From positions 1 to 64,000 of IMG/VR virus record IMGVR_UViG_3300045972_000146: a stretch of DNA of 64,000 nucleotides. One strand, written 5' to 3'. Below are positions 2,077 to 39,072 of the stretch, one piece after another. The first letter of the stretch is position 1. Every line of letters starts with the position of its first letter. A program made the translations under genes and the position numbers. Under the pieces are notes generated by a model. That model searched no databases. It was not told the origin of the DNA and saw nothing but the letters and a program-made list of their open reading frames with translations. The DNA is from a virus.

Positions 2077-5000
2077 TTAATTCCAAGTAAAATTAATTGA
2101 CTTATCTCCAAGATCTTCTAACGACGATGAGCTTCCATAATATTCTTTTGAGAATAATGGCATGTCAAATAATTGCATTTTCTTAGAGTCTTGATTTTTT
2201 TTCTTTACATGCATGTTATGCAGTTGTTGTTTGTATATTAAAACCATCATCATAGCTATAACCCTATCGAAGTTTCCTTTATCATTGTATTGTATTAGTT
2301 CCTCTAACAGAGGTTCTGAAAATATAGTAGTAAGACATTTCTTGCCAGGAGCGAATTCCTCATTAAGATATTCCTTTATAAGCCCTTCTCCGTAGTCTTT
2401 TATGGGGACATTCATGTGAATTCCCTTTCTTCTTTGTACAGTGGACTTCCCTATGATGTCATTAATGATATCTGGCTGGTCGGCTAATAAGTAATCACAA
2501 TGCTTCTGTGTGAAGTATGGAAATATACCTTTTCGTTCATTTTCATATAGAAGTCTAGCATTATAATACATCAAAAGCTTTCTTACGTTCTCATAATAAT
2601 CCTCGGCAGTATCTGGCCTCCCGGTATATTCAGCCACAAGTATATCATAATACTCTTCAAAGTTTTGGAATCTCTTATATATGAATGTAGATCCAAGAGA
2701 GTTTGTTCCAGCCTTATCGTGATCATATGGGTCACATCCTGCGATATATAGTTGATTAGATGTATCCGTATTTGGGTGTTCCCATATAACTATACTTCCC
2801 TCATGTCTATCATCTCTATGTAATGGATAATTAGTTATATCTCCGCCCTTCTTTATTTGCCAGGACAGACTGCCATTTACCCAATTTAGATCTCCAACCT
2901 GCTTATGGTTTTGCAGCTTCTTATTAGTTCTTAGTGCCGCTAACTGCATCATTAATTCCTTCTTTGGAAATATATTGCCAGTAAGTTCTAATACTGCCTC
3001 TTGTGGCGTAATTGGGTTCTCTGCAATATATCTATCAATTGCTCTGGAATCAGATGCTCCATCAATAACTTTTTGTCGTTCTGACATAGCATATTCAGTA
3101 GCCTTCTCTCTTAGACTGTTACCGAATTTATCCATATACATCCTTGCTCCCTTTTCGTTGAGCACAGACATATTCGCATATACAGGAACAAAGAATCCAC
3201 AGTAGTTTCCATCTGCACCTTCATCCCATATATTGGAGAATGATTTTATGTTGTATCCAGACGGCTTATAGAATAATTCCTTTAATCCGTCAAATCTACT
3301 ACCTTCATCGCCTCCAGTACCAAATGCAATCATCAATCCATATGCAACACCATCCTCCTCTACAGAAGGTCTAGCTATTTGCCATGCCTGAAGTATGTCT
3401 TTAAATGATCCAGCTTCTTCCCATAGTATAAGTTTACCACGTTTACCACGAGCTCTATTGGGGTCATTCTTTAGCGTAACGCCGATTATCTCAGACTTAT
3501 ACCCTATCTCAGTTTCATTGCCCAGTTCATCCTTAACCTTAATACCAGACTTTCTATGCATCTTAGTGGTAACAGTTCTCTTTTTGCTCCAAGCAGTATG
3601 TTCATCTATAAAGTCCATTAGATCCCACGCCTTACTTAAAAGACCATCTCTTACAAGGAATTCGGTCTCAGCAGCAATTGCATATGATTTAGAGTTCTCT
3701 ATATGATAGTAGTTTCTAGCAAGCATAGATGCTCCTTTGAATGAGTTGTGGGTTGGAATAAAATCTTTTGTAAGATACATATGATTCTCATTATCTACAC
3801 ATATACATCTTTGTTTTTCCACTCTGTCTAACTTCACTATTTCTGTTATAGCTATTCTGTTTAAATTATTTTTTCTCGACCTTATATTTTTTAATTTTCT
3901 AGGTAGTCTAAATATATTTTTATCAGTAGTTATTGTTATTGCCCAAGAATCTCTAGTATTTGAAAAATTATTATTTCCAAAGTTTACATTGCTTCTTCCA
4001 CTAATCTTATTACTTTTTCTACATCTAATACCAAGACTTCTTGCAATAAATAAAAAATCATCTACTAATCTTTCTGATGTCGATACAAAAGAGCACGAAC
4101 CATTTGAATAAAAACCAGAAGTGGAACTTCCGTCTGTATCCATAAGCCCCTGAATTAAACTAAATCTATCTTCTATAGATGCGTATTTATAGTCATCCGG
4201 AATAAATTTATCGAAAGAATGAACGTTTAGACCATATTCTTTTACAGTTTTTATTAATTCGTTTTTATTGGAATTAGACTTAATTATACACTTAAATTTT
4301 TCATTATTGCATCTCTTTACATCATATTCTGATCCAAGAATTCTTTGCAACTCATCTAAAATAAAATCATCATCGGTATAAAAATATATAGAACTTCTAG
4401 TCAACCCACCATCCCCAATTAATACCCCAAGAATATATGGATTAATTAAAAGTTCGTCCCTACTATCAAATTTTACTGGATTTATTTCTGGCAATTTATA
4501 TCTATAACTAACCTTTCCTAATTTCCCCTGCTTTAATTTTCTTTCAGAATATTCTTTTGTTGTTAATATATGTATCTTATTTTTATAATAAGTGGTCCAT
4601 AAATGATTTTCTCCGCAAGTTACGCTTCTACCGTCTTGGAGCCTAACTTCGTACACGTCTTTTTCTCCTTGCTCTACTATTTCTCCAACCCTAATTGGAG
4701 ATCCATTTGGATTCATAACCCAATCCCCAACACCCAAAGAACCCATTTCCACGTATCCATTAGGAGTTAATACCATCTCAGAATAAGGCTGTTCGTATCC
4801 AGCTCCACGTTTCTTTAGAACTACCATATGCTTACCCTCATCCTCGGCTTCTTGTATAGCAGAAAAGTAGTAATAATCATAGTCATAGAAATCCGGGAAC
4901 TCCCTAGTCTTCTCTCTGCGCTTCTTTATGTCTCCGAATCTATCTTTGTACTCATATTCAACAAGTCTTAATATAGGACAGTAGTTTAAGTAGAAGTAAT

Positions 5001-5190
5001 TATATCCACTTATATAATCTCCATCTGGCGCAGTAAAACCATTAATACATCTCTCTTGCTCGGTGTTCCAATACTCAAAGTATTCTGTTGTTCCTGAGGG
5101 TGCAAAACAGTAAACACCATGCTTCTGAAAGGAGATGCACGGTGTTCTAAATTTGTCGGTATTTAATATTCTTTTATTAAAATTGACCAT
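2077..5190 (-). CDS. terL: Terminase large subunit with intein
   Basis: ISGYNYFYLNYCPI; Walker A region LKKRGAGY|SFKGAS split by an intein; Walker B LILWEEAG; FGTGG; nuclease motifs AGCDPYD and GNFDRV. Confidence 0.95.
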   Translation of the reverse strand: MVNFNKRILNTDKFRTPCISFQKHGVYCFAPSGTTEYFEYWNTEQERCINGFTAPDGDYISGYNYFYLNYCPILRLVEYEYKDRFGDIKKRREKTREFPDFYDYDYYYFSAIQEAEDEGKHMVVLKKRGAGYEQPYSEMVLTPNGYVEMGSLGVGDWVMNPNGSPIRVGEIVEQGEKDVYEVRLQDGRSVTCGENHLWTTYYKNKIHILTTKEYSERKLKQGKLGKVSYRYKLPEINPVKFDSRDELLINPYILGVLIGDGGLTRSSIYFYTDDDFILDELQRILGSEYDVKRCNNEKFKCIIKSNSNKNELIKTVKEYGLNVHSFDKFIPDDYKYASIEDRFSLIQGLMDTDGSSTSGFYSNGSCSFVSTSERLVDDFLFIARSLGIRCRKSNKISGRSNVNFGNNNFSNTRDSWAITITTDKNIFRLPRKLKNIRSRKNNLNRIAITEIVKLDRVEKQRCICVDNENHMYLTKDFIPTHNSFKGASMLARNYYHIENSKSYAIAAETEFLVRDGLLSKAWDLMDFIDEHTAWSKKRTVTTKMHRKSGIKVKDELGNETEIGYKSEIIGVTLKNDPNRARGKRGKLILWEEAGSFKDILQAWQIARPSVEEDGVAYGLMIAFGTGGDEGSRFDGLKELFYKPSGYNIKSFSNIWDEGADGNYCGFFVPVYANMSVLNEKGARMYMDKFGNSLREKATEYAMSERQKVIDGASDSRAIDRYIAENPITPQEAVLELTGNIFPKKELMMQLAALRTNKKLQNHKQVGDLNWVNGSLSWQIKKGGDITNYPLHRDDRHEGSIVIWEHPNTDTSNQLYIAGCDPYDHDKAGTNSLGSTFIYKRFQNFEEYYDILVAEYTGRPDTAEDYYENVRKLLMYYNARLLYENERKGIFPYFTQKHCDYLLADQPDIINDIIGKSTVQRRKGIHMNVPIKDYGEGLIKEYLNEEFAPGKKCLTTIFSEPLLEELIQYNDKGNFDRVIAMMMVLIYKQQLHNMHVKKKNQDSKKMQLFDMPLFSKEYYGSSSSLEDLGDKSINFTWN
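3745..4794 (-). mobile_element. 350-aa intein with LAGLIDADG homing endonuclease, class-3-like
   Basis: Starts EQPYSEMVLTPNG; block B VTCGENHLW; LAGLIDADG motifs LGVLIGDG and IQGLMDTDG; block F/G KQRCICVDNENHMYLTKDFIPTHN followed by Ser+1. Confidence 0.92.
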
Positions 5191-19187: not shown

Positions 19188-19270
19188 GCCAGTATCATAC
19201 AAGATGAGAGCCTTGTAATGACCACGGAAAACTCTACGGAGTCTAAGGAGTTCGAATCTCCTAACTGGCA
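19188..19270 (+). ncRNA. tRNA-like element
   Basis: Acceptor GCCAGT/ACTGGC and canonical T-arm AGGAG-TTCGAAT-CTCCT, but no standard D or anticodon arms. Confidence 0.6.
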
Positions 19271-21345: not shown

Positions 21346-21419
21346 AGTTTATTAGCTCAGTTGGTTAGAGCGTCTGATTGTGGTTCAGAAGGTCGCGGGT
21401 TCGAGCCCCACATAAACTA
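21346..21419 (+). tRNA. tRNA-His(GTG), atypical
   Basis: Cloverleaf: AGTTTAT/ATAAACT, D-arm GCTC/GAGC, anticodon loop TT-GTG-GT, T-loop TTCGAGC. Confidence 0.85.
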
Positions 21420-22544: not shown

Positions 22545-23036
22545 ATGAACAAAGCTCAAGAAGAAATTTGTGATGAACTGATACTTCATGCAAATAACAG
22601 AACAGAAGTCTTTAATGTTATGATTACTACATTCAAAGACTTAAATGAACGTAATCTCAGAGAATATATTGCTGATAGATGGAAAGCTAAAATTCCAGGA
22701 AACAGAGTATCACTATCTGGACTGTCTTACAAGGAAAAAGTAACTGTAATTGCAGATTGGTTTGAAAAGAGAGATCTTGGTAAAATAAAGCATATCTATG
22801 CCTATATTAACAAAGGTTTATCTAAAAGTACTCCATATGATTTTTACTTGGAATTACTTGGAGCTAATGCTATAAATGCAGAAAGACGTTCTTTGCAACG
22901 AGGAGAAAAAGTCGAACTATTAGGGTTTGATAAATACCAAATGAGACTGGAAGTTGCAGATCTCAAATGGATAGGATATACATTCGAATTTCTTGTATGG
23001 GATATCAATGCCCGTAAGTACATTGAAATAGAATAA
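22545..23036 (+). CDS. Hypothetical protein immediately upstream of the tmRNA
   Basis: 163-aa ORF. Confidence 0.7.
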   Translation: MNKAQEEICDELILHANNRTEVFNVMITTFKDLNERNLREYIADRWKAKIPGNRVSLSGLSYKEKVTVIADWFEKRDLGKIKHIYAYINKGLSKSTPYDFYLELLGANAINAERRSLQRGEKVELLGFDKYQMRLEVADLKWIGYTFEFLVWDINARKYIEIE

Positions 23037-23040
23037 ACTA

Positions 23041-23335
23041 GTACGGCCCGTTTAGGTCGTTGGATTCGTCAAGGACACGAGGCTAGCATATGCCTCTACC
23101 TCCACCAAAACTACTATGTAATACGTAATGGCAAAATTGATTATGTCACCTATAGAAATATAGTCGTATCGTTGCGGGTTTGAGCCCCGTCATAGTAGCA
23201 AAGAACATAAGGGGGTAAACAGAATTGATCCGGGCAAGATGAAAACGAATAGGACTGTATGTCGCAATAAAAGGCGAAAAAACAATCCAAATCAACAATT
23301 ATGTGGGCTTAATGTCTGCATAATTTAGAATGTAC
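23041..23335 (+). ncRNA. ssrA: Circularly permuted (two-piece) tmRNA
   Basis: The acceptor piece 23041-23107 ends TACCTCC-ACCA and the coding piece starts GGGGGTA at 23211, giving a 7-bp stem with G3.U70. Tag frame 23273-23323 reads GEKTIQINNYVGLMSA*. The 3' end is uncertain. Confidence 0.8.
23112..23198 (+). ncRNA. tRNA-like element inside the tmRNA intervening segment
   Basis: TACTATG/CATAGTA acceptor, T-arm GCGGG-TTTGAGC-CCCGT, CTATA-GAAA-TATAG arm. Confidence 0.6.
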
Positions 23336-23506
23336 CTGTCGGGCACGTGAGCGAAAGCCGCGCGTTGTGTCCAATCGTCACCCGGCAGGGTTTTAAAACA
23401 TGGGTAGTGATACAGGGAAATTCGAGATCTCTCTGAGCGTCTATAGGCTTGGAAGGCCTACTACCCCCAATTATCAAAAATATTTACATTTAAAATCAAT
23501 TTAATT

Positions 23507-24329: not shown

Positions 24330-24881
24330 ATGGACGTGGGATTTATGTCAGACCTTCATTTAGGTCACAAGGCAATAGCATTATTGCGTGGATTCGCAGA
24401 TATTGATGAATATAACGAAGAGGTCATTAGAAGATGGAATTCGGTGGTAACTAAACGATGCTTAATATTTTTACTTGGGGATGCAACAATGGAGAATAAG
24501 AAATATATTCCTTTATTAGCACGCCTCAATGGTAGAATAGTTATGGTTGGAGGTAATCACGAAGATTTTCATGACTTCAAATTAATTAGTCAGTATGTTG
24601 AAGCAATAATGGGGGCAATACAGTATAAAGGATTTATCCTTACCCATATTCCGATACACACACAGGAGGTGTCGAGATTTAGAGGAAATATACATGGACA
24701 TTTACATGAGGATACTATAAAAAAGACTGCAGCGACTTATAATGAGAATTTCAAATCGGAAAGGCCATATACAGTTACAATTGCAGATACTATTGATAAA
24801 AGGTATTTGAATGTATCGTGGGATAGACTTGATGGATATCCTATATCACTCGAAAAGGTAATCAAATATTTTACTAAATAA
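24330..24881 (+). CDS. Calcineurin-like metallophosphoesterase
   Basis: SDLHLGH, LLGD, GNHE, THIP, NIHGHLH, NVSWD. Confidence 0.92.
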   Translation: MDVGFMSDLHLGHKAIALLRGFADIDEYNEEVIRRWNSVVTKRCLIFLLGDATMENKKYIPLLARLNGRIVMVGGNHEDFHDFKLISQYVEAIMGAIQYKGFILTHIPIHTQEVSRFRGNIHGHLHEDTIKKTAATYNENFKSERPYTVTIADTIDKRYLNVSWDRLDGYPISLEKVIKYFTK

Positions 24882-25949: not shown

Positions 25950-26024
25950 GGTTCCTTAGCTCAGTTGGATCAGAGCAACAATTTTCTAAGTTGAAGGTCG
26001 AGAGTTCGAATCTCCCAGGAATCA
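25950..26024 (+). tRNA. tRNA-Arg(TCT)
   Basis: GGTTCCT/AGGAATC acceptor, GCTC/GAGC D-arm, loop TT-TCT-AA, T-loop TTCGAAT. Confidence 0.85.
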
Positions 26025-33632: not shown

Positions 33633-33839
33633 AAACAAAACAGAAGTAACGGTGATATGTTAATCAGTGACAGAAATGATTAATAATTGGGTTCAATCCC
33701 CATACTTTAACAAATGGCAATAGCGTACCAGTTAACTAAGTACGTTTTGCAAAACAGCAGAATAAAGTTTTTTGTCGGGTTTTTAAACTGCTACCATGTA
33801 CATGGTCTAAAACCCTATCATTATTTTAAAACAATTCAA

Positions 33840-38941: not shown

Positions 38942-39072
38942 AAACCAAAGGGCATAACCCTGAGGTTCGTACCGGGGTGTCCCCGATGCGATGGGAGCGA
39001 TACCCATATGCCCGACTAGATAGGGGCAAGAGAAAATAAGTATTATTATTAACTAACTACAAATTATATCAA

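Follow-up and report, generated by a model that had tools for sequence, protein, structure and literature searches.

A probable circularly permuted, two-piece tmRNA gene in a crAss-like phage from a pond metagenome

The two-piece transfer-messenger RNA (tmRNA) is the textbook example of a permuted RNA gene, and is known from three bacterial lineages and from marine phages. Here we describe a locus in a stretch of 64,000 nucleotides (the window), which forms the first 64 kb of the virus record IMGVR_UViG_3300045972_000146, a complete record of 93,863 bp with direct terminal repeats whose source assembly is a pond metagenome. In this crAss-like phage, positions 23041-23394 of the window very likely form a circularly permuted tmRNA (ssrA) gene that is functional. 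Comparison with homologues indicates that its permuted order, the pairings between its two pieces and its tag reading frame are maintained by selection across a clade of related phages.

The same circular permutation is found in Alphaproteobacteria (Caulobacter), in a betaproteobacterial group and in cyanobacteria (Rfam models RF01849, RF01850 and RF01851, merged as RF04321). As in these bacterial genes, the window carries an acceptor piece upstream of a coding piece that starts with GGGG, the two being linked by an acceptor stem and helix 2, and its tRNA-like domain aligns to RF04321, although for the window itself the score stays below the cut-off. The spacer between the bacterial pieces is removed by tRNA-processing enzymes (PMC11915505). 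Unlike the bacterial two-piece tmRNAs, the window copy belongs to a phage of Bacteroidota-type hosts, its tag starts with G instead of A, pseudoknot 1 is absent and the 3′ region is a single hairpin domain. The permutation is likely to have an origin separate from the bacterial one. Two-piece tmRNAs have also been published for marine T4-like phages (OM43 phage Melnitz, pelagimyophages and cyanophages; PMC9004378), and the 2025 tmRNA database holds 79 phage sequences and three permuted types (PMC11915505). Like the window copy, those of the marine phages are permuted, phage-encoded and located among phage tRNA genes. They differ in that they group with alphaproteobacterial and cyanobacterial host tmRNAs, are found by ARAGORN and in some cases carry a glutamine riboswitch, and no sequence similarity to the window was detected in the phage collection.

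By a chain of sequence similarity, the window copy belongs to the same family as those of cr125_1 (NC_055900.1 87913-88362), other Crassvirales and the isolated Chryseobacterium phage MA9V-3 (PV245944.1 22766-23124). All share the permuted order, a small build without pseudoknot 1, the G3.U70 pair, tags that start with G and contain Y (e.g. GNFYVTDYTRIAA and GNVIDINKYVAKLEVAA), and a tRNA or tRNA-like element after the coding piece. The Crassvirales and MA9V-3 copies have canonical 7-nt T-loops, lack an encoded CCA and are found by ARAGORN, whereas the sub-lineage of the window is the opposite in each respect; likewise, the spacer of cr125_1 is not tRNA-like while that of the sub-lineage is. 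The family is already labelled in public records, and the window copy is a variant sub-type of it: 'transfer-messenger RNA, SsrA' is annotated in the RefSeq/GenBank Crassvirales records of cr10_1, cr50_1, cr52_1, cr60_1, cr114_1, cr115_1 and cr125_1, and likewise for the homologue in MA9V-3. Our literature search found no paper describing a crAss-like permuted tmRNA family. Clear permuted-tmRNA homologues are also present in cr1_1 (NC_055873.1 37420-37721), cr55_1, cr4_1 (NC_055893.1 67867-68171) and cr53_1, where no tmRNA feature is annotated and either a tRNA-Lys or nothing stands under the match.

Within the window, the DNA order is 3′ part, spacer, 5′ part, so that the 3′ end at 23107 precedes the 5′ end at 23211 (Table 1). 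An earlier note on this DNA had read a permuted tmRNA from this arrangement, with a 3′ end ahead of GGGGGTA, and each of its motifs is in place. The pieces are joined by a 7-bp acceptor stem with G3.U70, the alanyl-tRNA synthetase (AlaRS) determinant, and by a helix 2 of ~20 bp, in which GTACGGCCC (23041-49) lies opposite GGACTGTAT (23252-60) and TCGTT (23057-61) opposite AACGA (23244-48). Between helices 2c and 2d, the UAGG of the acceptor piece faces the AUAGG of the coding piece, both of them invariant. The tag frame is preceded by an A-rich leader, and helix 2 and the resume codon are just 12 nt apart. Pseudoknot 1 therefore has no room, in agreement with the earlier reading of a gene with an 8-nt T-loop and no space for this element.

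Homologues were reached through the DnaB protein of the window, which matches ~160 related viral contigs at 60-88% identity, with human-gut crAss-like phages among the more distant ones, and then through searches of whole related records. BLAST with window positions 23037-23475 matched 7 of 28 DnaB-related records and a sequence model of the coding piece matched 11 of 50 further ones, giving homologues in ~18 related crAss-like phage records. Eleven sequences were fully parsed (the window, L185, L186, L188, L189, L190, L191, L196, L198, L199 and L201); L199 shares 302 nt at 100% identity with the RefSeq phage cr1_1. On these 11 sequences (alignment A3) we scored a structure of 35 pairs, made up of four helix-2 segments together with the T and acceptor stems.

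The permuted order is present in all 11 sequences, and in every one the 5′ strand is preceded by its exact complement, in which a U stands opposite G3. The acceptor stem takes five forms (GGGGGTA/TACCTCC, GGGGGTG/CACCTCC, GGGGCTG/CAGCTCC, GGGCCTA/TAGGTCC and GGGGCAT/ATGCTCC), and the U.G at the G3.U70 position is invariant (11/11). Standard pairs fill 87.6% of cells, compared with 67.6 +/- 1.5 in shuffled controls (0/500 reach 87.6%) and 38.6-46.8% with pairing partners displaced by 1-3 columns, a control that is somewhat generous to the proposed structure because this was derived partly from the same sequences. Changes on both sides occur in 24 of the 35 pairs. The acceptor stem is 100% paired, with 4/7 pairs changed on both sides, and the T stem 96.4% paired (4/5). 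For helix 2c, which reads TCGTT/AACGA in the window, pairing is 92.7% and 5/5 pairs have changed on both sides; homologues show, for example, TCATT/AATGA, TCTAT/ATAGA and CTTAT/ATAAG. Pairing is 83.3% in helix 2a, 77.7% in helix 2d (GTACGGCCC/GGACTGTAT in the window) and 72.7% in helix 2b, and 16/23 pairs of the four helix-2 segments together have changed on both sides. The acceptor stem with G3.U70 and the helix-2 pairings of the earlier note are thus borne out, the latter by compensatory changes. The gap over the controls and the number of double changes leave little doubt, on comparative grounds, about the proposed structure. Its support is comparative and not thermodynamic, as single sequences fold without a significant energy (z -1.0 to -1.7); RNAalifold on spacer-trimmed sequences recovers the acceptor and T stems, and helix 2 only in part. 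Outside the scored pairs, the 9-bp helix of the 3′ domain is retained through two-strand changes in L185, L186 and L188, as read from the sequences, and another hairpin takes its place in L189, L190 and L191.

The tag GEKTIQINNYVGLMSA (23273-23320), as proposed in the earlier note, has its frame retained in 11/11 sequences. Homologues encode GNKTIQINNYVGLVA, GTKTIQINNYVGLMSA, GNNTIQINNYVGLMSA, GNNFQMRNYVGLMSA, GNIITIRNYVGQVA, GNKTIKVMSYVGNVA, GNTSYVTDYTRLVA, GNLCYVTDYTRLVA and GNTMFVTDYSCVA, the last common to L199 and L201, with synonymous codon differences such as TAT/TAC, GTG/GTA and TTA/CTT. A ...YVG(L)..A ending is conserved, which places a hydrophobic residue and Ala at the end of the tag. 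Loss of the acceptor pairing or of the tag frame in homologues had been named beforehand as the outcome that would speak against the proposal; both are present in all 11.

Table 1 Positions of the putative permuted tmRNA gene and of the element downstream of it in the window
Feature	Positions	Strand	Remarks
Acceptor piece	23041-23107	+	Helix-2 3′ strands, T arm, acceptor 3′ strand, encoded CCA
Helix-2 3′ strands, acceptor piece	23041-49, 23057-61, 23065-74	+	
UAGG, invariant, acceptor piece	23053-56	+	
T stem	23079-83 (GAGGC) / 23092-96 (GCCTC)	+	Preceded by GGAC-AC
T-position loop, 8 nt, TAGCATAT	23084-91	+	
Acceptor 3′ strand, TACCTCC	23097-103	+	Then discriminator A and encoded CCA (23105-07)
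Spacer	23108-23210	+	103 nt, tRNA-like minihelix inside
Spacer linker, 5′ side, AAA	23108-10		
Spacer minihelix, closing stem	23111-18 / 23191-98		8 bp
Spacer T-like arm	23174-78 / 23186-90		5-bp stem, 7-nt loop TTTGAGC
Spacer linker, 3′ side	23199-23210		12 nt
Coding piece, core part	23211-23323	+	
Acceptor 5′ strand, GGGGGTA	23211-17	+	
D-loop-like stretch	23218-29	+	
Helix-2 5′ strands, coding piece	23230-35, 23238-43, 23244-48, 23252-60	+	
AUAGG, invariant, coding piece	23249-53	+	
Tag frame GEKTIQINNYVGLMSA, 16 codons	23273 (resume codon GGC) to 23320	+	Stop TAA 23321-23
3′ domain of coding piece	23335-23389	+	9-bp helix 23335-43 / 23381-89 enclosing smaller hairpins
tRNA-like end element	23402-23466	+	Stem GGGTAGT (23402-08) / ACTACCC, inner hairpin, T-like arm (fold)
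T-like arm of end element, AGGC-TTGGAAG-GCCT	23445-59	+	

In place of a canonical 7-nt T-loop (TTCRANY), the window has a loop of 8 nt, and the stem beneath is present and covarying. The window and L185 share the loop TAGCATAT, and L189 and L190 have CAGCATAT and TAGCATCAT; these four odd loops share the form (T/C)AGCAT(C)AT, above T stems that compensate (GAGGC/GCCTC, CGGGC/GCCCG, GGGGC/GCCCC). Canonical T-loops are present in L188, L191, L196 and L199. The CCA is encoded in five members (the window, L185, L186, L189 and L190), and in 5/5 of them a tRNA or tRNA-like element begins 3-4 nt past it. None of the six members without an encoded CCA, which represent four distinct sequences, has such an element. 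The sub-lineage is marked by three traits: a non-T-loop of 8 nt, a gene-encoded CCA, and a tRNA-like element that begins 3 nt past it.

The spacer of the window contains a minihelix built of a closing stem and a T-like arm, and the D arm and anticodon arm are absent from its middle. Pairing of this minihelix is complete (100%) across the window, L185, L186 and L190, and 8/13 of its pairs have changed on both sides. The segment 23111-23198 is not called a tRNA by ARAGORN or Rfam and does not form a cloverleaf; the earlier description of the spacer as tRNA-shaped thus holds for a conserved acceptor-type stem and T arm, but not for the remainder of a tRNA. L190 carries a recognisable tRNA as its spacer (Rfam 46.3 bits, ARAGORN Tyr-GTA), and L189 a different tRNA-like element with a canonical TTCGAAT loop. 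Elsewhere the spacer is 17 nt (L188), a long plain hairpin (L191, L196 and L199), 167 nt (cr125_1) or about 430 nt with an open reading frame (ORF) of ~130 codons (G015; L207, C1:50682-51222), and the matched pieces of cr56_1 (NC_055890.1 6755-7617) lie 860 nt apart with an annotated endonuclease gene between them. The 17-nt spacer of L188, together with the plain hairpins and the ORF, indicates that a tRNA-like insert is not needed for release of the halves. The earlier proposal that the insert recruits processing enzymes therefore does not hold as a requirement, but the insert co-occurs with the encoded CCA and fits a processing role within the sub-lineage. Compensation within the minihelix, even though the D and anticodon regions are gone, suggests that the part recognised by RNase P and RNase Z is under selection. 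Two further complete relatives, L204 (G019:C1:8705-8792) and L195 (G028:C1:60272-60341), have a coding piece (GGGGATG... and GGGGCTG..., respectively) that adjoins an opposite-strand ORF. A single pattern search of the whole record found no acceptor piece in either; the gene may be split between two loci, have a divergent acceptor piece or have decayed.

RNase Z does not cut before CCA, and precursors that encode CCA mature through endonucleolytic cleavage further downstream, after which exonucleases trim the remainder. From the sequence we infer the following course of processing, charging and tagging for the window tmRNA. The region would be transcribed together with the neighbouring plus-strand genes and tRNAs, and the tRNA-like domain would fold across the spacer. 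RNase P would cut 5′ of G23211 and 5′ of the spacer minihelix (about 23110/23111), and exonucleases would trim the 3-nt trailer past the encoded CCA, to give two RNAs held by base pairing. The CCA end would be charged by host AlaRS and delivered to stalled ribosomes by host SmpB and EF-Tu, where translation would resume at GGC 23273 and append the tag GEKTIQINNYVGLMSA. Because RNase Z would be blocked by the CCA, and because the CCA correlates with a tRNA-like spacer, the short trailer of the acceptor piece in this sub-lineage would be created by RNase P cleaving at the minihelix 5′ end.

The family probably derives from the one-piece tmRNA of a Bacteroidota host. Bacteroides itself uses the tag GETNYALAA (bioRxiv 10.1101/2025.03.18.644028). 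Among the phage tags the first two residues are GE or GN, and N-Y or Y is retained ahead of a hydrophobic stretch and Ala. One family member, phage MA9V-3, infects Chryseobacterium. These tag starts, the Chryseobacterium host and the GN tags of one-piece phage tmRNAs with the same stems fit descent from Bacteroidota. The earlier note had proposed an independent phage permutation. The gene is indeed phage-encoded and permuted, but it is common to a wide crAss-like clade, and a permutation separate from the alphaproteobacterial, betaproteobacterial and cyanobacterial ones is plausible. Taken together, these strands allow a wider reading that we offer only tentatively. In it, 3′-end maturation has been rebuilt in the sub-lineage, such that the encoded CCA would block RNase Z and the minihelix 3 nt downstream would provide the RNase P cut that frees the acceptor piece. 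The conserved 8-nt loop, unable to form the usual tRNA elbow, would replace the T-loop and imply a recognition unlike that of any cellular tmRNA, and the clade would represent a fourth independent two-piece origin, from a Bacteroidota one-piece tmRNA.

A one-piece tmRNA of 396-416 nt is present in freshwater phage contigs (L002:2717-3112, L027, L028, L047, L069, L072, L080 and L087), and L078 and L081 have a one-piece tmRNA of 416 nt. The acceptor stem (GGGGGTA/TACCTCC), T stem (GAGGC/GCCTC) and ACCAAAA tail of the L002 type are identical to those of the window, and the tags of these one-piece genes start with GN and contain VGL. In contrast to the window, this type has the standard gene order, pseudoknots and a 22-codon tag. 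Its T-loop is 6 nt (TTCGAA), and the L002 type passes RF00023 at 50.3 bits but is missed by ARAGORN. The phages that carry it are unrelated to the window phage, with no shared proteins within ~12 kb. A Bacteroidota-type TAnnTTTG promoter motif lies immediately upstream of the one-piece gene. Searches of viral, metagenome and genome collections with the exact 3′-end pattern returned only one-piece tmRNAs of phages and matches due to chance, none of them a bacterial tmRNA; BLAST of GenBank phages with the window region and with the L002 tmRNA gave no match.

Gene finders separate the family along its T-loops. At gathering cut-offs, Rfam yields no tmRNA match in the window. At a relaxed threshold, RF04321 (the merged permuted-tmRNA model, cut-off 47) aligns over its full length to 23045-23323 with 16.0 bits (E 0.82), RF01849 scores 12 bits, and RF00023 has no match at E up to 10. 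The low RF04321 score goes together with the 103-nt spacer and the odd T-loop; among relatives the model reaches 55.7 bits in L188, 46.8 in L191, 37.6 in L190, 34.5 in L185 and 31.6 in L186. ARAGORN reports two tRNAs only in the window, and calls a permuted tmRNA with the same tag frame in L188, L191, L196, L199, cr125_1 and MA9V-3. The members called by ARAGORN and the two best Rfam scorers are those with canonical T-loops.

Several observations weigh against a functional permuted gene in the window. The copy lies far under the Rfam cut-off, and ARAGORN finds no tmRNA in native, spacer-deleted or de-permuted constructs, so that the check on a de-permuted sequence suggested in the earlier note came out negative; this null says little, since ARAGORN likewise misses the one-piece L002 tmRNA that passes Rfam. 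The 8-nt non-T-loop could impair the tRNA elbow, recognition by RNase P or the binding of SmpB, and as the phage genome lacks smpB, the tmRNA must fit the SmpB of the host. Pseudoknot 1 is missing, and this is so family-wide, including in members that pass ARAGORN and Rfam, with 12-17 nt between helix 2d and the resume codon. Helices 2a and 2b, at 73-83% paired, compete for the same bases. The correlation between encoded CCA and tRNA-like spacer may reflect a single evolutionary event instead of a functional tie. Finally, the only sequencing run found to contain window DNA is the source pond metagenome, with no RNA run among the matches.

The odd T-loop, the missing pseudoknot 1 and the absence of an ARAGORN or Rfam call lend some weight to the idea that the window copy, or the whole 8-nt-loop sub-lineage, is non-functional in trans-translation. 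It could be a gene in decay, or a mimic that is not charged or adds no tag and sequesters host SmpB or ribosomes, comparable to the tmRNA fragment without a tag in mycobacteriophage DS6A. Inhibition of the host tmRNA by a phage form of this RNA has been recorded (PMC11915505), and the tag of the window ends in MSA compared with the LAA of Bacteroides GETNYALAA. However, the odd loop is conserved in four diverged members above a compensating T stem, members that pass ARAGORN and Rfam do so without pseudoknot 1, and G3.U70 persists along with the CCA, the resume context and a tag frame that has taken synonymous changes. Retention of G3.U70, CCA and tag frame with a compensating T stem fits selection on charging and decoding, and loss of function is accordingly improbable. 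The spacer element might itself be a passenger without a part in maturation: a degenerate tRNA that landed in a tolerant slot, or an independent small RNA. The slot is swappable, having taken 17 nt, a plain hairpin, a real tRNA, an ORF or an endonuclease gene, and the halves of L188 need no tRNA-like insert. Against this, the minihelix is maintained by compensatory change despite its lost D and anticodon regions, and such elements follow the CCA at 3-4 nt in all CCA-encoding members and in 0 CCA-less ones; a passenger seems somewhat unlikely to us, although less so than loss of function.

Two other alternatives deny that the upstream 3′ end belongs to the gene. In one, the tmRNA is a one-piece gene from 23211 to ~23469, ending in the downstream hairpin and TACCCCC, and the upstream ...TACCTCCACCA is a leftover fragment. 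TACCCCC (23462-68), which does not appear in the earlier note, is a second and perfect 7-nt complement of GGGGGTA; the hairpin ahead of it (AGGC-TTGGAAG-GCCT) has a loop resembling the TTCGAA loop of the one-piece phage tmRNA, and the minimum-energy structure of 23211-23471 folded alone contains this pairing. Such a stem would have G3-C70 without the AlaRS determinant, however, and no CCA would follow. When the whole precursor is folded, the minimum-energy structure joins GGGGGTA to the strand upstream and not to TACCCCC, while the end element closes on its own 5′ strand (GGGTAGT with ACTACCC). The end element is missing in L185 and L188 and replaced by another structure in L186, the upstream 3′ strand covaries with the 5′ strand in all 11 sequences, little helix-2 complement can be read by eye ahead of the downstream hairpin, and RF00023 has no match. 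On these comparative data, and with a separate element downstream, the one-piece reading was rejected as very improbable, and the complementarity between the 3′ strand of the end element and the tmRNA 5′ end is a coincidence. Real tRNAs stand at the position of the end element in more distant members (tRNA-Lys in L199, L202 and L204, tRNA-Met in L191); the element probably marks the 3′ limit of the coding-piece transcript and is not the 3′ end of the tmRNA itself. The chance is close to nil that the upstream piece is instead an attachment site, a copy of the 3′ end of a host ssrA, even though ssrA is the integration target of many mobile elements, which carry its 3′ end (PMC11915505). This candidate was rejected because the ~35 nt helix-2 strand of the supposed fragment pairs and covaries with the phage's own coding piece, and because, among 185,579 species representatives, no bacterial genome has this T arm and acceptor end as a tmRNA. 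In addition, the genome is complete with direct terminal repeats, and no integrase was found among the neighbouring genes scanned.

The permuted gene sits in a region (~19.7-29 kb) where all genes are on the + strand, with a tRNA-His at 21346 and a tRNA-Arg at 25950. Scans for promoters and terminators (sigma-70 type and Bacteroidota type) gave chance-level results. The flanking ORF (22545-23036) and the phosphoesterase gene (24330-24881) yielded no close relatives in a pattern scan and protein search. Three further intergenic elements (19188-19270, 33643-33709 and 38950-39013) retain an acceptor-type stem and T arm only, the first with a canonical TTCGAAT loop in its T arm; their position between genes suggests a tRNA-like punctuation of long transcripts in the window phage. 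Proteins encoded in the window include ones of 4533 and 2012 residues. A 1037-residue protein (2077-5190, - strand) matches LAGLIDADG_3 weakly over residues 343-395 (E 3.3e-06), which may represent an intein or a nested homing endonuclease.

The tmRNA family of crAss-like phages is probably a further two-piece lineage of separate origin. As ARAGORN and the Rfam cut-offs both miss the sub-type of the window, tmRNA genes of environmental crAss-like phages are under-counted. The window copy illustrates how far a tRNA-like domain may drift, losing the T-loop motif and pseudoknot 1, while the pairings, G3.U70 and the tag remain under selection, and its conserved, tRNA-derived spacer element makes a tRNA-punctuation model of tmRNA maturation testable.

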